Part shown: positions 48,446-57,400 of the stretch, in pieces
How positions within the stretch are numbered: position 1 is the stretch's first letter
Layout of the letters: every line of letters starts with the position of its first letter
Sequence record: ON528735
DNA: 64,000 nucleotides
Reading direction: 5' to 3' (one strand)
Source: Shigella phage ESh25
Notes under the pieces: model-generated
The model's input: the letters and a program-made list of their open reading frames with translations, nothing else
Told to the model about the DNA's origin: nothing
The model's database searches: none
Position numbers and translations under genes: made by a program

Positions 48446-48498
48446 CCTCATGTTATGTCAGTAAGATTACTATAACACAACACGAGGGACTTGTAAAC
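48446..48498 (-). promoter_or_regulatory. early-promoter cassette, copy A (-35 GTTTAC, extended -10 TGnTATAGT, 5' UTR and SD)
   Basis: Minus strand reads GTTTACAAGTCCCTCGTGTTGTGTTATAGTAATCTTACTGACATAACATGAGG; 52 of 53 identical to copy B at 63770-63822. Confidence 0.6.
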
Positions 48499-50555
48499 TA
48501 CATTTTGAACTTTTTAGACATTCCGTTGATGTTAACCAAAGAAGCTAAGATTTGAGAAACTTCGCTTTCCTCTTCTTTTGATTCTTCTACAAGGAATTGA
48601 TTAAATCCAGCCATTGGACGAAATTCACCAGTTTCCATTAGATGGTCGCCATCATATACTGATTCTTCTAATTGTTCAGAAGGAGGAACGATTGTACCTT
48701 CGATTAGATACTTATTATAAGCAGTTTCTTTCATAAAGTAAGTACTTACTTTATTAATCTTCAGTAAAATTCCACGTGGTAGAATAACTTCAGCTTCTGA
48801 TGGAAATCCTGACAAATGACCTGGAACGATAACTTTAACTCGTTCAGCTCCTTTAATTACCATACCCACGCTAGTTTCTGCATCTTCATTAGCATATGTA
48901 GAATGACTACCCATATGCATCAAATCTTCTGCATCAACGGAACCTTCTCCTTCACCAGAAAATACTGCGCCGGAATCATCTAGAGCCATATAGTTTTTAC
49001 CATGCTCACCGAAGATATTTGGTTTAAGCGATGTGGATACGAAGTTCTTGAAATAGAACATTTTGTTTTCAATGTTATGACGCAAAGTTTTAAATGTAAC
49101 TTCTTGTCCACGGTAAAGTGTAGTTCCTGGAGGAAGAACTGAACCTTTAGCGAATGCAGAATCAAGCGTCTCGATGTGCTTAATAGCACGTTCCATATAT
49201 TCTTCACGGGTAGAATCCGGTTTACCTAAAAGGAACGAGTTCATTTCAACATATGAATCTGCGCAATAATCTTCAATTACATCAGACTCAGCCTGAGTCA
49301 ATCCTTTTGGAGTTACTTCAGTGCTTGCATATTCATACGCCTGAGCAGCGGATTCATCAATTAATTTATAAATTCCATTCATTACAAATTGAATAATAGC
49401 TGTCTTTTCATCTGGCGTAGCTTTAGAACCTTTAACTAAATCATTGATAATTTTCTTAATAACATCAAAACTATTAGAAATATTAATATCAGCAAGATCG
49501 CTTAAAATTTTATCAGTTTTATAATCAAAGAATTCTTTATTCTTTAAATATTCTTGAGAACCTTGATATGTTATATCGCTCTGCAACTTGATAGATGGAT
49601 CACGTAAACGTGCATGGGCTAATGCAATATGATTTCGGAAGCTTTCTAGTTCATAATCGTTAGATTTAAAACGAGAAGCACTTCTCATACCACCGATAGC
49701 TCCTTTGCTGAAGTTTGAACCAATCTGAATAACGCCAGAGTTCATTGGTCCTTCTGCTTTATATACCGGAACTTTAGATTCAAACTCTTGATATTTCTTA
49801 GCAGCGAAGCTATCACCCTGAAGTGAAGCATCAACAGTAGAATATTGAGCTTGTGCTGCTAATCGACGACTAATTTTAGTTTTCTGAATAACAGCTTGAT
49901 CCGTACGCTTATCATTTTCTAAAGCAATAGAAGCAGCAACTGCGACAGCTTTAGGAACAGCATTACCTGTTTTAACGTCTACATAAACATCACCGACTTT
50001 CGATTCAACTTTTGTGAATAACTCAGTTGAAATAGGAGGTACACCTGGAATGTCTTCTAAATTGGCATTTTTACGGTAAACCATAATATATGCATATTTC
50101 TTATCATAGTCCCAGATTTCCTTTAAAAGAACATATCGACCTGCTCCTTTAGTACGTACTAAACGGTCAGCAATAACTTGCATTTGACGAGCAGCGCCGT
50201 TTGTTTTACTTTTTAGTACGCGGAATAGGCATGCATCAATTTTATACTGTTTCATTGTTTGAAGAGCAGTATCAAAAACCGCATTAATGACACCAATTGG
50301 ATTTCCACCCAAGTTTTTAAGCTTAACTAACGATAATTTCTCGTTGACGCCTATCATTACGATATGCATCATTTTGTCGCCTGGCTTAACGTTTTTATTC
50401 GTATCACCGCCAGAGGTGTATGTACAAAATCGAAATCCAGGAAGAACGCTTTCTTCACCGGCTTGAATAGCAAAAATTTGAGGTATTTTATGCTTAGGAT
50501 TTAAGTTAACAACCGGCGCCGAAGCGCCGTCAAATAATTCTGTAATAAGTTCCAT
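48498..50555 (-). CDS. Alt-like ADP-ribosyltransferase paralogue
   Basis: 685 aa; N-terminal about 190 aa closely parallel the adjacent Alt (MELITELFD...KYAYI...STELFTKVESKVGDVY); C-terminal R-S-E triad (TLYRGQ, FVSTSL, SEAEVILPRG); divergent middle. Confidence 0.75.
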   Translation of the reverse strand: MELITELFDGASAPVVNLNPKHKIPQIFAIQAGEESVLPGFRFCTYTSGGDTNKNVKPGDKMMHIVMIGVNEKLSLVKLKNLGGNPIGVINAVFDTALQTMKQYKIDACLFRVLKSKTNGAARQMQVIADRLVRTKGAGRYVLLKEIWDYDKKYAYIMVYRKNANLEDIPGVPPISTELFTKVESKVGDVYVDVKTGNAVPKAVAVAASIALENDKRTDQAVIQKTKISRRLAAQAQYSTVDASLQGDSFAAKKYQEFESKVPVYKAEGPMNSGVIQIGSNFSKGAIGGMRSASRFKSNDYELESFRNHIALAHARLRDPSIKLQSDITYQGSQEYLKNKEFFDYKTDKILSDLADINISNSFDVIKKIINDLVKGSKATPDEKTAIIQFVMNGIYKLIDESAAQAYEYASTEVTPKGLTQAESDVIEDYCADSYVEMNSFLLGKPDSTREEYMERAIKHIETLDSAFAKGSVLPPGTTLYRGQEVTFKTLRHNIENKMFYFKNFVSTSLKPNIFGEHGKNYMALDDSGAVFSGEGEGSVDAEDLMHMGSHSTYANEDAETSVGMVIKGAERVKVIVPGHLSGFPSEAEVILPRGILLKINKVSTYFMKETAYNKYLIEGTIVPPSEQLEESVYDGDHLMETGEFRPMAGFNQFLVEESKEEESEVSQILASLVNINGMSKKFKM

Positions 50556-50558
50556 GAT

Positions 50559-52652
50559 TTATCCTTGAACGAACTTGTAAGGCATGTTTGTAATATCTAT
50601 GCAAGACGCAATAATTCCAAGAGATGATTCTACTTTCTGTTTAACGTTTGATGAAACAAATGATGCAAAGTCAACTCTGTCTTCTATTTCAATATCACCT
50701 GTCATTGCAACTACTTCACCGGTTTCCATTAAATGGTCTCCGTCATAGATTACCGATTCGGTGAGCTCTTCCGTGGTCATAACTTCAGCTTGAATGAGTT
50801 TTGTATTATTAGATGTTGTTCCGTCATTATTAGAAGCATCAGTTATTTTATTAACTTTGACCATCAATCCACGCGGTAGAATAACTTCAGCTTCTGTTGC
50901 TATTCCGAGACTTCCTGGATATACAACATTAACTTTATGAGCTCCATCAATTGCCCATCCTATTTGAACTTTAACGTATTCAGGATTTTCTTTATACGCT
51001 CTTATTTCGTTTGGATTAATAGTTATTCCTTCTTCATTTTTATCAACTGTTAATTCATTGCGAGCTTCTGGTTCTAAAAGACCAATACCAGCATGTGTGA
51101 TTCCAAAACGTCCAAAAATGATAGGAGTTAAAGAAGTAGATACAAAATTTCTGAAGTAGAACACTTTATTTTTAACTAACGCTTCATATATAGGAGCAGT
51201 CATACTTTGAGCACGATAAACTGTAATGCCTTCTGGTATACGGTCACCATTTTCAAAAGCTGAATCTAAGTTATTTATAGCAGATTCAATTTCTTTTTCA
51301 CTCATTACATCATATCGTTCTGGATTGTAGCGGCCTAAAAGAAGATTATTGATGTCAGTATATCCTGAACCGCAATATTCTCTAATGCCACGCTTTTGCG
51401 ATGGAGTATATTTAGAACCATCACGGGCAATAGTAATATCAATCATTGGACCTGCACCAATTCCGGAAAAGCTATAAATCATTCGTTTGAGGAATTTAGT
51501 TTTTGCTGCGTTCCAAGAATTTTTAGTTATTTCTTCCCAGACTTCATCTGGCTGCCCTTTACGAGTTTTATTATGTTTATCAAGCCAATTATCTTTATAT
51601 TCTTCAAAGAATTGATTAACAGCTGCTGCGTATTTCTCTAAACATTTTATTGAAGTAGTTGGTTCATTTTTAATCGCATTAAGAATTACATCTTTAATTT
51701 TTTCAGAAACTTCATTAACCTCACTTTTTGAAAAGAATTTATAGTCATAGTGAAGTTCATCTGCAGTTCCTTCGGCAATAATTTTTGCTGCCTTAGTTTT
51801 AGAAGCTAATGAATTAATTCCAAGCTTCATTTCTTCTGCTTCGGGAATTAAAGGAGCGGTAGCAGGTTTATTAAAATTAGCTGCTGTAGATTCATACTTC
51901 TGGAATAATTCACTTTCAAATCTAGAAGATTCCAATGATTGACTTTGCGCAATTGCTCTACGGGAAATTTTAACTTTAACGATTACAGCTTGGTCAGAAC
52001 GTTTATCATTTTCTTGTGCAATAGATGCTGCAATTGCCTCATTTTTAGTTACTTGAGCTCCAGTATCTTTATTGATATAAACATCACCAACCTTCGATTC
52101 AACTTTAGTAAAGAGCTCGGTACTAATTTCAGGAACTCCTGGAATGTCTTCTAATGATACGTTTTTGCGATGTATAAGAATATATGCATACTTTTTATCG
52201 TAATCCCAGAGTTCCTTAAGAAGGACGTATCTGCCACCTGAACGACTACGGATAAGTCTATCAGCAATAACTTGAATTTGTCGAGCTTGGCCAGCAGTTT
52301 TAGACTTAAGAATACGAAGCATACAAGCATCAATTTTATATTGACGCATTGTTTGCATTGCAACAGTAAAAACTGAATTGATATAATTAATTGGGCTTGG
52401 ACCAAGACCTTTTAATTTAGCAATTGAACCTTTAGCAGTTAATGTAAAAGGAACAATATGCATCATTTTATCGCCCATCTTTAAATCACGATTAGTATCA
52501 CCTCCAGATGTATAGGTACATAAACGAAAGCCTGGTTGTTCAATTGCATCATCAACATGAACTGAAAAAATTTGCGGTATTTTCTTCTTTGGATTTAAGT
52601 TTGTAATCGGAAGAGTAGTATCTTCGTCAAATAATTCTGTAATAAGTTCCAT
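50559..52652 (-). CDS. alt: Alt ADP-ribosyltransferase (capsid-packaged ART)
   Basis: Start taken at the second Met (MELITELFD...); R-S-E triad (TVYRAQ, FVSTSL, TEAEVILPRG); minus-strand TATAAATA upstream; position adjacent to the ligase region as in T4. Confidence 0.8.
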   Translation of the reverse strand: MELITELFDEDTTLPITNLNPKKKIPQIFSVHVDDAIEQPGFRLCTYTSGGDTNRDLKMGDKMMHIVPFTLTAKGSIAKLKGLGPSPINYINSVFTVAMQTMRQYKIDACMLRILKSKTAGQARQIQVIADRLIRSRSGGRYVLLKELWDYDKKYAYILIHRKNVSLEDIPGVPEISTELFTKVESKVGDVYINKDTGAQVTKNEAIAASIAQENDKRSDQAVIVKVKISRRAIAQSQSLESSRFESELFQKYESTAANFNKPATAPLIPEAEEMKLGINSLASKTKAAKIIAEGTADELHYDYKFFSKSEVNEVSEKIKDVILNAIKNEPTTSIKCLEKYAAAVNQFFEEYKDNWLDKHNKTRKGQPDEVWEEITKNSWNAAKTKFLKRMIYSFSGIGAGPMIDITIARDGSKYTPSQKRGIREYCGSGYTDINNLLLGRYNPERYDVMSEKEIESAINNLDSAFENGDRIPEGITVYRAQSMTAPIYEALVKNKVFYFRNFVSTSLTPIIFGRFGITHAGIGLLEPEARNELTVDKNEEGITINPNEIRAYKENPEYVKVQIGWAIDGAHKVNVVYPGSLGIATEAEVILPRGLMVKVNKITDASNNDGTTSNNTKLIQAEVMTTEELTESVIYDGDHLMETGEVVAMTGDIEIEDRVDFASFVSSNVKQKVESSLGIIASCIDITNMPYKFVQG

Positions 52653-52675
52653 CATAGCCTCTCTAGTGTTTATTC

Positions 52676-52683: not shown

Positions 52684-52690
52684 AAATTAA

Positions 52691-52704
52691 AGGCCCGAAG
52701 GCCT
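52691..52704 (-). terminator. hairpin AGGCC-cgaa-GGCCT between the ligase-side early unit and alt
   Basis: Hairpin immediately after the 62-aa ORF stop, followed on the minus strand by a T-rich run. Confidence 0.5.
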
Positions 52705-52893
52705 TTAGTAATCTAGTGGTAAGAGAGTACGATATATTTCAAACTTTGGTCCTTTTTCATAGGCATCAAATGTTTCTGTAAATTTATTATAAGCGTATGC
52801 ATCTACAAATTCGAGAATGACTTGTGATACAGAAGTAGAAACATCTCCACCTTCTTTTTGAGCAATGACAATTGTTTCTAAGTAAGCTTTCAT
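52705..52893 (-). CDS. hypothetical small protein between ligase and alt
   Basis: 62-aa ORF whose start overlaps the gene 30 stop; assignment to a named T4 ORF uncertain. Confidence 0.45.
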   Translation of the reverse strand: MKAYLETIVIAQKEGGDVSTSVSQVILEFVDAYAYNKFTETFDAYEKGPKFEIYRTLLPLDY

Positions 52894-54353: not shown

Positions 54354-54619
54354 TGTTCATCCTTCAGAGTTTGATTTACAGCTCTATTATAAATCAATTC
54401 ATCATTAAGCTCAGTTAAAGACCTATGATATGTAGTTCTAACTTTATTTCCTTGCATCCAGTGCTTGATATAAATGAAACCTTGCTCTACACATTTTTTA
54501 AAAATTCGTTCGTCTTTTTGAGCTCGGAATTCTGGATTGCATCTAAAGAATTGATTTACGTGACCGTAATCACGCGTAGTATTACCTTCATTTTCATAAA
54601 TAGTGTGAACGACAAACAT
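54350..54619 (-). CDS. hypothetical protein (T4 30.1 position)
   Basis: 89-aa ORF overlapping the gene 30 start. Confidence 0.55.
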   Translation of the reverse strand: MFVVHTIYENEGNTTRDYGHVNQFFRCNPEFRAQKDERIFKKCVEQGFIYIKHWMQGNKVRTTYHRSLTELNDELIYNRAVNQTLKDEQ

Positions 54620-55458
54620 TAGAATGCTCCTTGGAAAATATTATCACCACAAGTAGGTCTATTATACAAATACTCTATGCCACCAGGTTTAATATAGTTC
54701 CATGTCTGAAACGGATGTGTCTGATATGGATGATATAGATGATTATAAGGATTAAACCCAGGAGTTCTCCAGGTAGTGTTCCAAGGAAAAGAATCATTTT
54801 TAATCATCTTTTCAATTACATCTTTTATAGCTTTTTCACTATCAAAACTTTCTTTATTTTCCTTCGGTGAAAAAAGTTTATTTTCTACATCATTCCATGT
54901 ATAAACTCGCTGCGCAGTTTTTGGAATATTGTCACGCTCTCCTCGAGCCATCCAATAAACAGGAACATTTAATATTTCACTCGCATGATCGCAATGATGC
55001 GCGAGATCGTCAATATAACAAATTACGTTATATTTCTCTTTTGCCTTTTTGAACAACTCTTCTTTTGAAGAATCATGACCACACATCAATACTTCTGAGA
55101 AGGCACCAGGAAAAAGAGCATTCAAATTAAATTGACGATTTAGCAGAGCGTCAATAGAATCACCCAATGCTGTAACAGCTACAAAATTATAATCTTCTTT
55201 TAATTTGTTAATTACACACAGGGCATCTTTATACGGAGACAAATAGCGAATAAAATCTGAACGATTATACTTTTCGATTAATTTAACACCAAGTTCTTCA
55301 TCGCAATTAAAGAGCTTACCAGGAGAAATAAATTTTTCGTCCTGAATCATTTTTAAAATATGTTCCAACGGAAGATTATATTTTTGGGCAAAATAAGGAA
55401 GACCTGATTGCCAGCTTAAACATACACCATCAATATCAGTCAAAATAGTAGGCTTCAT
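54619..55458 (-). CDS. HAD-superfamily hydrolase-like protein with aromatic-rich C-terminal extension (T4 30.2 position)
   Basis: N-terminal motif ILTDIDGV (DxDG[T/V]); downstream VAVTA and YIDD consistent with HAD motifs II and IV; C-terminal W/Y/H/P-rich tail. Confidence 0.55.
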   Translation of the reverse strand: MKPTILTDIDGVCLSWQSGLPYFAQKYNLPLEHILKMIQDEKFISPGKLFNCDEELGVKLIEKYNRSDFIRYLSPYKDALCVINKLKEDYNFVAVTALGDSIDALLNRQFNLNALFPGAFSEVLMCGHDSSKEELFKKAKEKYNVICYIDDLAHHCDHASEILNVPVYWMARGERDNIPKTAQRVYTWNDVENKLFSPKENKESFDSEKAIKDVIEKMIKNDSFPWNTTWRTPGFNPYNHLYHPYQTHPFQTWNYIKPGGIEYLYNRPTCGDNIFQGAF

Positions 55459-55919
55459 AGAGAGTCTCTTAATAGGTTTAACACATCAATAAATTCAGCT
55501 TCGGTTAGTATTGTATCATCTTTTGTTAGACTACTAGCCATGCTGTGCTTCAAAACTTTTCCTTTCGAGGCTTGTAATGCATCACGAAAGCCCTTGTTTT
55601 GAATCGCTGCCTCAAAATACGCATTTGTGTATAATTCTTTCCACGCTGTAGAGTATCTTGAAAACGGAACTCCGAGCCAGAAGAGGGTCCCACGGTCCTG
55701 AGCTCTAGCATAAGACCTTCCAGCTTGTTGGGCGGCAAGCCCGGATAACCCAAATACACGACGCTGCTGTTCAACATTTTTCACCTTACATCCTTGGAGG
55801 AATCCTTCGAGACCTCCAAATTGGATACCATCCATAACAAAAGGCCATTGGGCGAAATTACTTAATGCGCATGATGGCCATTTAAAATTGCTTCTAATCT
55901 CTAACTCAGACATTTTCAA
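55455..55919 (-). CDS. NADAR (YbiA/DUF1768)-like ADP-ribose-processing protein (T4 30.3 position)
   Basis: 154 aa; signature ALSNFAQWPFVMDGIQF resembles the YbiA FSNFAAWP...DG...W/F core. Confidence 0.55.
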   Translation of the reverse strand: MKMSELEIRSNFKWPSCALSNFAQWPFVMDGIQFGGLEGFLQGCKVKNVEQQRRVFGLSGLAAQQAGRSYARAQDRGTLFWLGVPFSRYSTAWKELYTNAYFEAAIQNKGFRDALQASKGKVLKHSMASSLTKDDTILTEAEFIDVLNLLRDSL

Positions 55920-57067: not shown

Positions 57068-57400
57068 TTATTTTACTACTTTCCAGTGCTTCATGTCAAG
57101 TTTACCAACTTTTTTCATCTTCTCAATTAAGCGTTCGGCACGTTGGCGAGCTGTAACATAATACCATTCGCCTAATTCATTTTGTTCAATTTTTCCAACG
57201 ATTACTGTATTCAATTCATAAATCCAACCAGTAAAGAAATTATGAACTTGAATTGTAAAGGTGAAATCTGTTCCCATACCTTCTGTTGTTTCTACTTCAA
57301 TAATATCACCTTCAACTGCCATTAAGAACCACATAGTTTCATCATATTTACCATTGAAGCATTTAGTTTTAACTGTAGCGTTCAGATTAATCGTTTTCAT
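57068..57400 (-). CDS. hypothetical protein (T4 30.8 position)
   Basis: 110-aa ORF; GGAG SD; upstream GTTTAC early-promoter-like motif around 57428-57457. Confidence 0.55.
   Translation of the reverse strand: MKTINLNATVKTKCFNGKYDETMWFLMAVEGDIIEVETTEGMGTDFTFTIQVHNFFTGWIYELNTVIVGKIEQNELGEWYYVTARQRAERLIEKMKKVGKLDMKHWKVVK

Follow-up and report, generated by a model that had tools for sequence, protein, structure and literature searches.

The open reading frame (ORF) at positions 55455..55919 of the analysed DNA of Shigella phage ESh25 (sequence record ON528735; 64,000 nucleotides, hereafter the window) was assigned to gene 30.3 (adfN) of a T4-like phage, and its product was found to belong to the NADAR superfamily. 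The identity of the gene, the fold of its product, the conserved residues and the intactness of the allele were all established in this analysis. The preferred reading, to which a probability of about 0.93 is given, is that the window copy encodes a functional AdfN orthologue, i.e. a NADAR DNA ADP-ribosylglycohydrolase that would enable growth on hosts carrying DarTG1. Its activity and its role in counter-defence would follow from those of the T4 orthologue, with which it shares 97% identity. The anti-DarTG1 function of T4 gene 30.3 is already known from published work; since this is the case, the result carries little weight for discovery and its practical value lies in annotation. With an intact adfN, the window phage is expected to form plaques on hosts that carry DarTG1, which bears on host-range prediction for T4-like therapeutic phages.

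Gene 30.3 of a T4-like phage

The region displays 97-98% DNA identity with Tequatrovirus phages (Shigella phage Sf25, RB51 and others) and follows the gene order of RB51: alt.-3, alt.-2, alt, alt.1, 30 (ligase), 30.1, 30.2, 30.3, 30.4 ... rIII, 31, cd. The order in T4 agrees from alt onwards, with short alt.-2/alt.-1 remnants in T4 and a full-length alt.-2 in the window. Its sequence identifies the window as Tequatrovirus DNA, from a T4-like phage, and the ORF as gene 30.3 (adfN). The window thus holds tandem full-length Alt-family ADP-ribosyltransferase paralogues in the manner of RB51 alt.-2 and alt, while T4 keeps remnants of the duplication only.

The predicted protein matched the Pfam family Phage_30_3 (PF08010) with an E-value of 2.5e-69 and 231.9 bits (gathering cut-off of 36) along the entire profile (positions 1-138 of 138). 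It is 97% identical to gp30.3 of T4 and 99% identical to that of RB51. Five conservative changes distinguish it from the T4 protein (R11K, I53V, P89T, I125M and G128S), none of them at invariant or catalytic positions. A tblastn search detected homologues in 1510 phage records, and in 1503 of these the query was covered to at least 80%; the phages infect Escherichia, Klebsiella, Shigella, Aeromonas, Acinetobacter, Vibrio and other hosts, and identities go down to about 35%. The PF08010 match and the homologues in these records confirm that the ORF is a real gene, far beyond chance. A match to phrog_652 was also obtained (E = 4.2e-51). This profile has 296 positions, of which AdfN covers 126-272 only, so that the family also includes longer proteins that are extended at their N-terminus.

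Most database records label adfN as 'hypothetical protein', and one, that of phage Shinka, as 'NADAR domain containing protein'. The homologue of Acinetobacter phage phi1_092060 (L006 4001-4483, 43% identity) is annotated as 'DprA-like DNA recombination-mediator protein', which is probably a mis-annotation.

The initial annotation had described a 154-aa ORF without naming its strand. The ORF list and its translation give 154 codons on the minus strand with a TTG start and with ALSNFAQWPFVMDGIQF inside. The ORF as such is real, but its start was corrected to the in-frame ATG at position 55913, as annotated in T4 and RB51. This codon lies two codons downstream of the TTG at 55919 and yields a protein of 152 aa. 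The numbering of E36 and K43 published for T4 fits the ATG start only (PMC11825919), and the two additional codons are probably not translated into the AdfN protein. Gene 30.4 and adfN overlap by 8 nt, the adfN ATG being situated in the final codons of 30.4 (AATGTCTGA), the end of which reads …GAAAATGTCTGA with the ATG embedded, and the TGA stop of adfN overlaps the ATG of gene 30.2 (ATGA). From the overlaps on both sides it follows that these genes form a translationally coupled string.

The early expression of the gene proposed in the initial annotation would follow from gene position only. A scan for sigma-70 promoters and terminators between 52600 and 58400 remained at chance level (22 promoters found, 20.3 expected) and can therefore not establish timing. 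Its best minus-strand promoter site (57099..57070, TTGACA-18-TAAAAT, 11/12) is found a short distance upstream of gene 30.7, and alt.1 has a hairpin resembling a terminator (52707..52688, minus strand) at its end. With these two signals as borders, a unit of about 4.4 kb would run from 30.7 through 30.3 to 30 and alt.1, which is only suggestive.

Table 1. Position of adfN, its conserved elements and further genes considered in this analysis. Positions refer to the window, except for the last three lines, where they refer to the loci of other phages.
Feature	Position	Strand	Description or basis
adfN (T4 gene 30.3), coding sequence	55455..55913	-	152 codons and TGA stop (55455-55457); PF08010, identity with T4/RB51 and gene order
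Additional codons TTG AAA, probably untranslated	55914..55919	-	ATG annotation in T4/RB51; E36/K43 numbering
SNF motif, codons S18-N19-F20	55854..55862	-	Conserved without exception in 68 family members; FSNF is its counterpart in YbiA (2B3W) by the family profile
E36 codon, catalytic glutamate	55806..55808	-	Invariant in 68 relatives; aligned to the YbiA Glu
K43 codon, phosphate-coordinating lysine	55785..55787	-	Invariant in 68 relatives; aligned to the YbiA Lys
H123 codon, histidine of the last beta-strand, mark of the phage gp30.3 subgroup	55545..55547	-	Invariant in 68 relatives; predicted strand 120-123
C-terminal alpha-helix, residues 138-151	55461..55502	-	Predicted helix, intact
Out-of-frame ORF 30.3' within adfN	55550..55777	-	75 aa; Pfam DUF2883, E = 2e-48; annotated in T4 as internal translation product
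Gene 30.2	54619..55458	-	279 aa; downstream of adfN
Alt-family gene (alt.-2)	48498..50555	-	685 aa
Alt-family gene (alt)	50559..52655	-	698 aa; ADPrib_exo_Tox, E = 1.9e-37
gp30.2 homologue or NT5C-type gene after adfN, Morganella phage	L004 4447-5085		
gp30.2 homologue or NT5C-type gene after adfN, Acinetobacter phage	L006 4485-5147		
gp30.2 homologue or NT5C-type gene after adfN, KVP40-like Vibrio phage	L008 4476-4961		

NADAR fold and catalytic residues

Searched as a single sequence, the window protein gave no match to the Pfam NADAR family (PF08719) at E ≤ 10, so that a link to NADAR needs profile or structure methods. NCBIfam and PDB sequence searches with the protein alone gave no match either. 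For the profile approach, 107 relatives were gathered and the 68 full-length ones were aligned (36-86% identity). The profile of this alignment had a sole significant match in the PDB, YbiA of E. coli (2B3W, E = 0.0052), in which the SNF motif, the glutamate and the lysine of the gp30.3 family are aligned with their YbiA counterparts. When scanned singly, 25 of the 68 relatives matched PF08719, the best with an E-value of 1.5e-7. An AlphaFold2 model built on the family alignment reached a pLDDT of 92.8 and a pTM of 0.88. Foldseek comparison of the model with the PDB returned at the top YbiA (2B3W), the Phytophthora NADAR with ADP-ribose (8BAU) and the DarT1-linked NADAR of Geobacter lovleyi (8BAT), and nothing significant beyond these three. 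The profile match to YbiA, the PF08719 matches of the relatives and the structural comparison bear out the membership in the NADAR/YbiA family that had been proposed for the ORF. The comparison with NADAR structures, which the initial annotation had suggested as a check, ranked these structures first and revealed no unrelated fold. All sequence-level evidence places the window protein in the NADAR superfamily and in its phage gp30.3/AdfN-T4 subgroup (PF08010).

The residues on which the activity of NADAR proteins depends are present in the window protein, among them a Glu-Lys pair seven residues apart (E36/K43). Pairs with this spacing occur in the NADARs of E. coli C7 (E88/K95) and in PnNADAR (E43/K50), K95 of the former being the counterpart of K43 (Schuller et al., 2023). 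The last strand carries a histidine in phage gp30.3 NADARs, a glutamate in YbiA and an aspartate in DarT1-linked NADARs (PMC11125620; Schuller et al., 2023). In T4 AdfN, the E36A substitution abolished de-ADP-ribosylation in vitro and weakened the rescue of phage RB69, K43A allowed just partial rescue of RB69, and C-terminal truncation weakened the rescue and reduced the activity (PMC11825919).

Probable anti-DarTG1 function and alternative readings

According to later papers citing their work, the gene family was predicted as NADAR by de Souza and Aravind. The resistance of T2 and T4 to DarTG1 was mapped to gene 30.3, which was renamed adfN for anti-DarT factor NADAR (Johannesman et al., Nat Commun 2025, PMC11825919). 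The same study found AdfN-T4 to be both necessary and sufficient against DarTG1: upon deletion of adfN, T4 and T2 no longer formed plaques on DarTG1 hosts, and RB69 was rescued by ectopic expression of adfN. Purified AdfN-T4 stripped ADP-ribose from DarT1-modified DNA while the E36A variant did not, and AdfN-T4 neither bound DarT1 nor had any effect on DarTG2 (PMC11825919). In an in vitro assay, the T4 phage NADAR accepted guanosine-ADPr as a substrate for hydrolysis, whereas thymidine-ADPr was not hydrolysed (Cihlova et al., 2024, PMC11125620). In a transposon screen of T4 (HIDEN-SEQ), adfN insertions were lost on DarTG1 hosts only (bioRxiv 10.1101/2025.11.20.689424). The removal of ADP-ribose from guanine in phage DNA, proposed for the ORF in the initial annotation as an anti-DarTG activity, has thus been demonstrated for the 97%-identical T4 orthologue in these three studies. 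Its scope is narrower than proposed, as it holds for DarTG1 (guanine) and not for DarTG2 (thymine). The construct in Methods 4.2 of PMC11125620 is given as 'E. coli T4 phage NADAR (gp30.3; residues 1-208)', a length that disagrees with the 152 aa of T4 gp30.3 in NC_000866.

In uninfected cells, AdfN-T4 failed to neutralise DarT1, and the phages T5 and Bas25 were rescued only weakly (PMC11825919). Both observations imply a further T-even factor, and a simple model in which the enzyme alone suffices is therefore incomplete.

For the window phage, AdfN would be produced from a string of early-region genes that lies between rIII and the ligase gene. The DarT1 toxin of the host would ADP-ribosylate guanine bases of the infecting phage DNA, and AdfN would break the N-glycosidic bond between ribose and guanine using E36, K43 and H123. 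Replicable DNA would in this way be restored, allowing growth on DarTG1-carrying hosts. The target of AdfN would be the modification and not the toxin.

Alternatively, the main substrates could be small ADP-ribose derivatives, such as cADPR-like immune signals or ADPr-1''-phosphate from RNA repair, and not ADP-ribosylated DNA. AdfN would then dampen signalling by NAD+ derivatives or remove by-products of repair. Small-molecule substrates were predicted for most phage NADARs by contextual analysis (Iyer et al., 2022); the homologue in T4-like phages of Klebsiella and Aeromonas lies inside a tRNA cluster, a context loosely tied to RNA repair, and NT5C/HAD-like genes follow adfN in several lineages. 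However, DNA guanine-ADPr hydrolysis and a DarTG1-specific phenotype were directly shown for the T4 orthologue. A reaction with small molecules would represent at most an additional activity. This alternative is considered unlikely.

It is less probable still that AdfN reverses or tunes the ADP-ribosylation of host proteins or RNA by the phage's own transferases, i.e. Alt, its paralogue or ModA/ModB. The two Alt-family genes that the initial annotation had placed about 3 kb away are real and are located on the same strand, the end of the nearer at a distance of 2.8 kb from the ORF; their proximity is, however, just part of the conserved gene order of T4. Alt-type enzymes modify arginine in proteins. 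NADAR activity on a protein arginine linkage is unreported in the NADAR and adfN literature examined, and the NADARs assayed take guanine-ADPr in DNA as their substrate, but not thymine-ADPr (PMC11125620; Schuller et al., 2023). Although co-expression of NADAR and ART in T4-like phages has been noted (Iyer et al., 2022), neither Alt nor ModA/ModB is ever invoked in the adfN papers, and adfN is not needed on E. coli K-12 hosts that lack DarTG1 (bioRxiv 10.1101/2025.11.20.689424). The earlier suggestion that the protein tunes the phage's own ART activity has accordingly found no support.

RB69 is naturally sensitive to DarTG1, a one-base insertion near nucleotide 411 of its gene cutting off the last 15 residues (PMC11825919), and with them the C-terminal helix. 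The RB69 DNA reads ACTAACTTGAAG versus ACTAAC-CGAAG in T4 and in the window, and the additional nucleotide leads to a stop after TILT. In the RB69 DNA, the +1 frame still encodes the lost tail EAEFIDVLNLLRDSL. Comparison with RB69 and T4 revealed that this type of insertion is absent from the window allele, the protein of which reads through to ...EAEFIDVLNLLRDSL and its stop codon. Nineteen nucleotides differ from T4, 12 of them in codons with an unchanged amino acid, and just 5 amino acids are changed, a pattern that fits purifying selection. The window phage can thus be taken, from its coding sequence, to carry an intact adfN allele and not an RB69-type null. Shortened copies do occur (137 aa in RB69; fragments in other phages, e.g. 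of 109 aa), but that the window allele is inactive and decaying like the RB69 copy is very unlikely given its full length, the presence of all invariant residues and of the C-terminal helix, and the few amino acid changes relative to T4.

Neighbouring genes and related systems

The product of gene 30.2 begins with MKPTILTDIDGV, which includes a HAD-like DxDGV motif and reads as HAD motif I; gp30.2 itself had no match in Pfam or PDB sequence searches. Homologues with 46% identity are located directly downstream of the adfN homologues in a Morganella and an Acinetobacter phage, and that of the Acinetobacter phage displays sub-threshold matches to NT5C, Hydrolase and HAD_2. The adfN homologue of a KVP40-like Vibrio phage has other neighbours, and the gene that follows it clearly encodes an NT5C 5'(3')-deoxyribonucleotidase (E = 3.8e-11). 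A gp30.2 homologue or an NT5C-type gene right after adfN was thus found in Tequatrovirus, Mosigvirus (RB69) and the Morganella, Acinetobacter and KVP40-like Vibrio phages, and such a pairing was not found in the Klebsiella, Aeromonas and Ochrobactrum phages compared. The DxDGV motif, the sub-threshold matches of the one homologue and the NT5C gene in the analogous slot of the Vibrio phage raise the idea that gp30.2 may be a remote NT5C/HAD-like phosphatase.

That gp30.2 could be the T-even partner of AdfN-T4, or could act in the same pathway, e.g. by processing released ADP-ribose or nucleotides, is regarded as very unlikely. The HIDEN-SEQ text on DarTG1 reports adfN and never mentions 30.2 (bioRxiv 10.1101/2025.11.20.689424). 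Genes for gp30.2 were found in 1439 records and for AdfN in 1510, with matching genus profiles, but these distributions do not discriminate because both genes are widespread in Straboviridae.

In Aeromonas phage AS4 (L005 4001-4450) and Klebsiella phage Mineola (L007 4001-4450), the adfN homologue (about 42-44% identity) is located outside the ligase region, inside the phage tRNA gene cluster and with tRNA genes on its flanks.

Among the characterised systems, T4 AdfN is the closest to the window copy, with which it shares the length of 152 aa, the slot between 30.2 and 30.4, E36/K43/H123 and the C-terminal helix; the two are five substitutions apart, and it is the T4 protein that was assayed, whereas the window copy is known from sequence. 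The DarG1 antitoxins, i.e. the NADARs of E. coli C7 and Geobacter lovleyi (PDB 8BAT), are associated with DarT1 and have an aspartate in the last strand and an N-terminal extension of the YbiA fold. In contrast, the window protein is an orphan without this extension and with a histidine in place of the aspartate: its neighbours are 30.2 and 30.4, no darT1 was found beside adfN, and the flanking genes had no ART or DarT match in Pfam. Furthermore, AdfN-T4 cannot stand in for DarG1 in uninfected cells. Strictly speaking, the window protein does not belong to the DarG1 antitoxins, yet it would work like DarG1.

YbiA of E. coli (2B3W) is a housekeeping N-glycosidase of riboflavin intermediates, encoded in a LexA-controlled operon, with a glutamate in the last strand. 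The window protein is just 17-19% identical to it and falls outside the YbiA family because it has a histidine (H123) rather than a glutamate at this place. AdfN-Bas32 and AdfN-Bas60, from T5-like phages and Vequintavirinae, are phage NADARs directed against DarTG1 and not DarTG2, as is AdfN-T4, but they belong to other NADAR clades, were independently acquired and are active without T-even infection (PMC11825919). Two further anti-DarTG factors of T-even phages are AdfM (the Tk.4 macrodomain of T4) and AdfA (anti-DarT factor A of T4/RB69). AdfM is an antitoxin-like hydrolase as AdfN is, but folds as a macrodomain and counters DarTG2 (thymine). The R164H variant of RB69 AdfA associates directly with DarT1 in a bacterial two-hybrid assay, whereas AdfN shows no such association and works as an enzyme on the modified DNA.

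Finally, the out-of-frame ORF 30.3' inside adfN was compared with its T4 counterpart. Eight amino acid changes were counted in its 75 residues versus 2 in the adfN frame over the same stretch, and in RB69 the 30.3' frame is broken by a stop. ORF 30.3' is thus probably not under coding selection and would be a leftover of annotation and not a gene maintained by selection.
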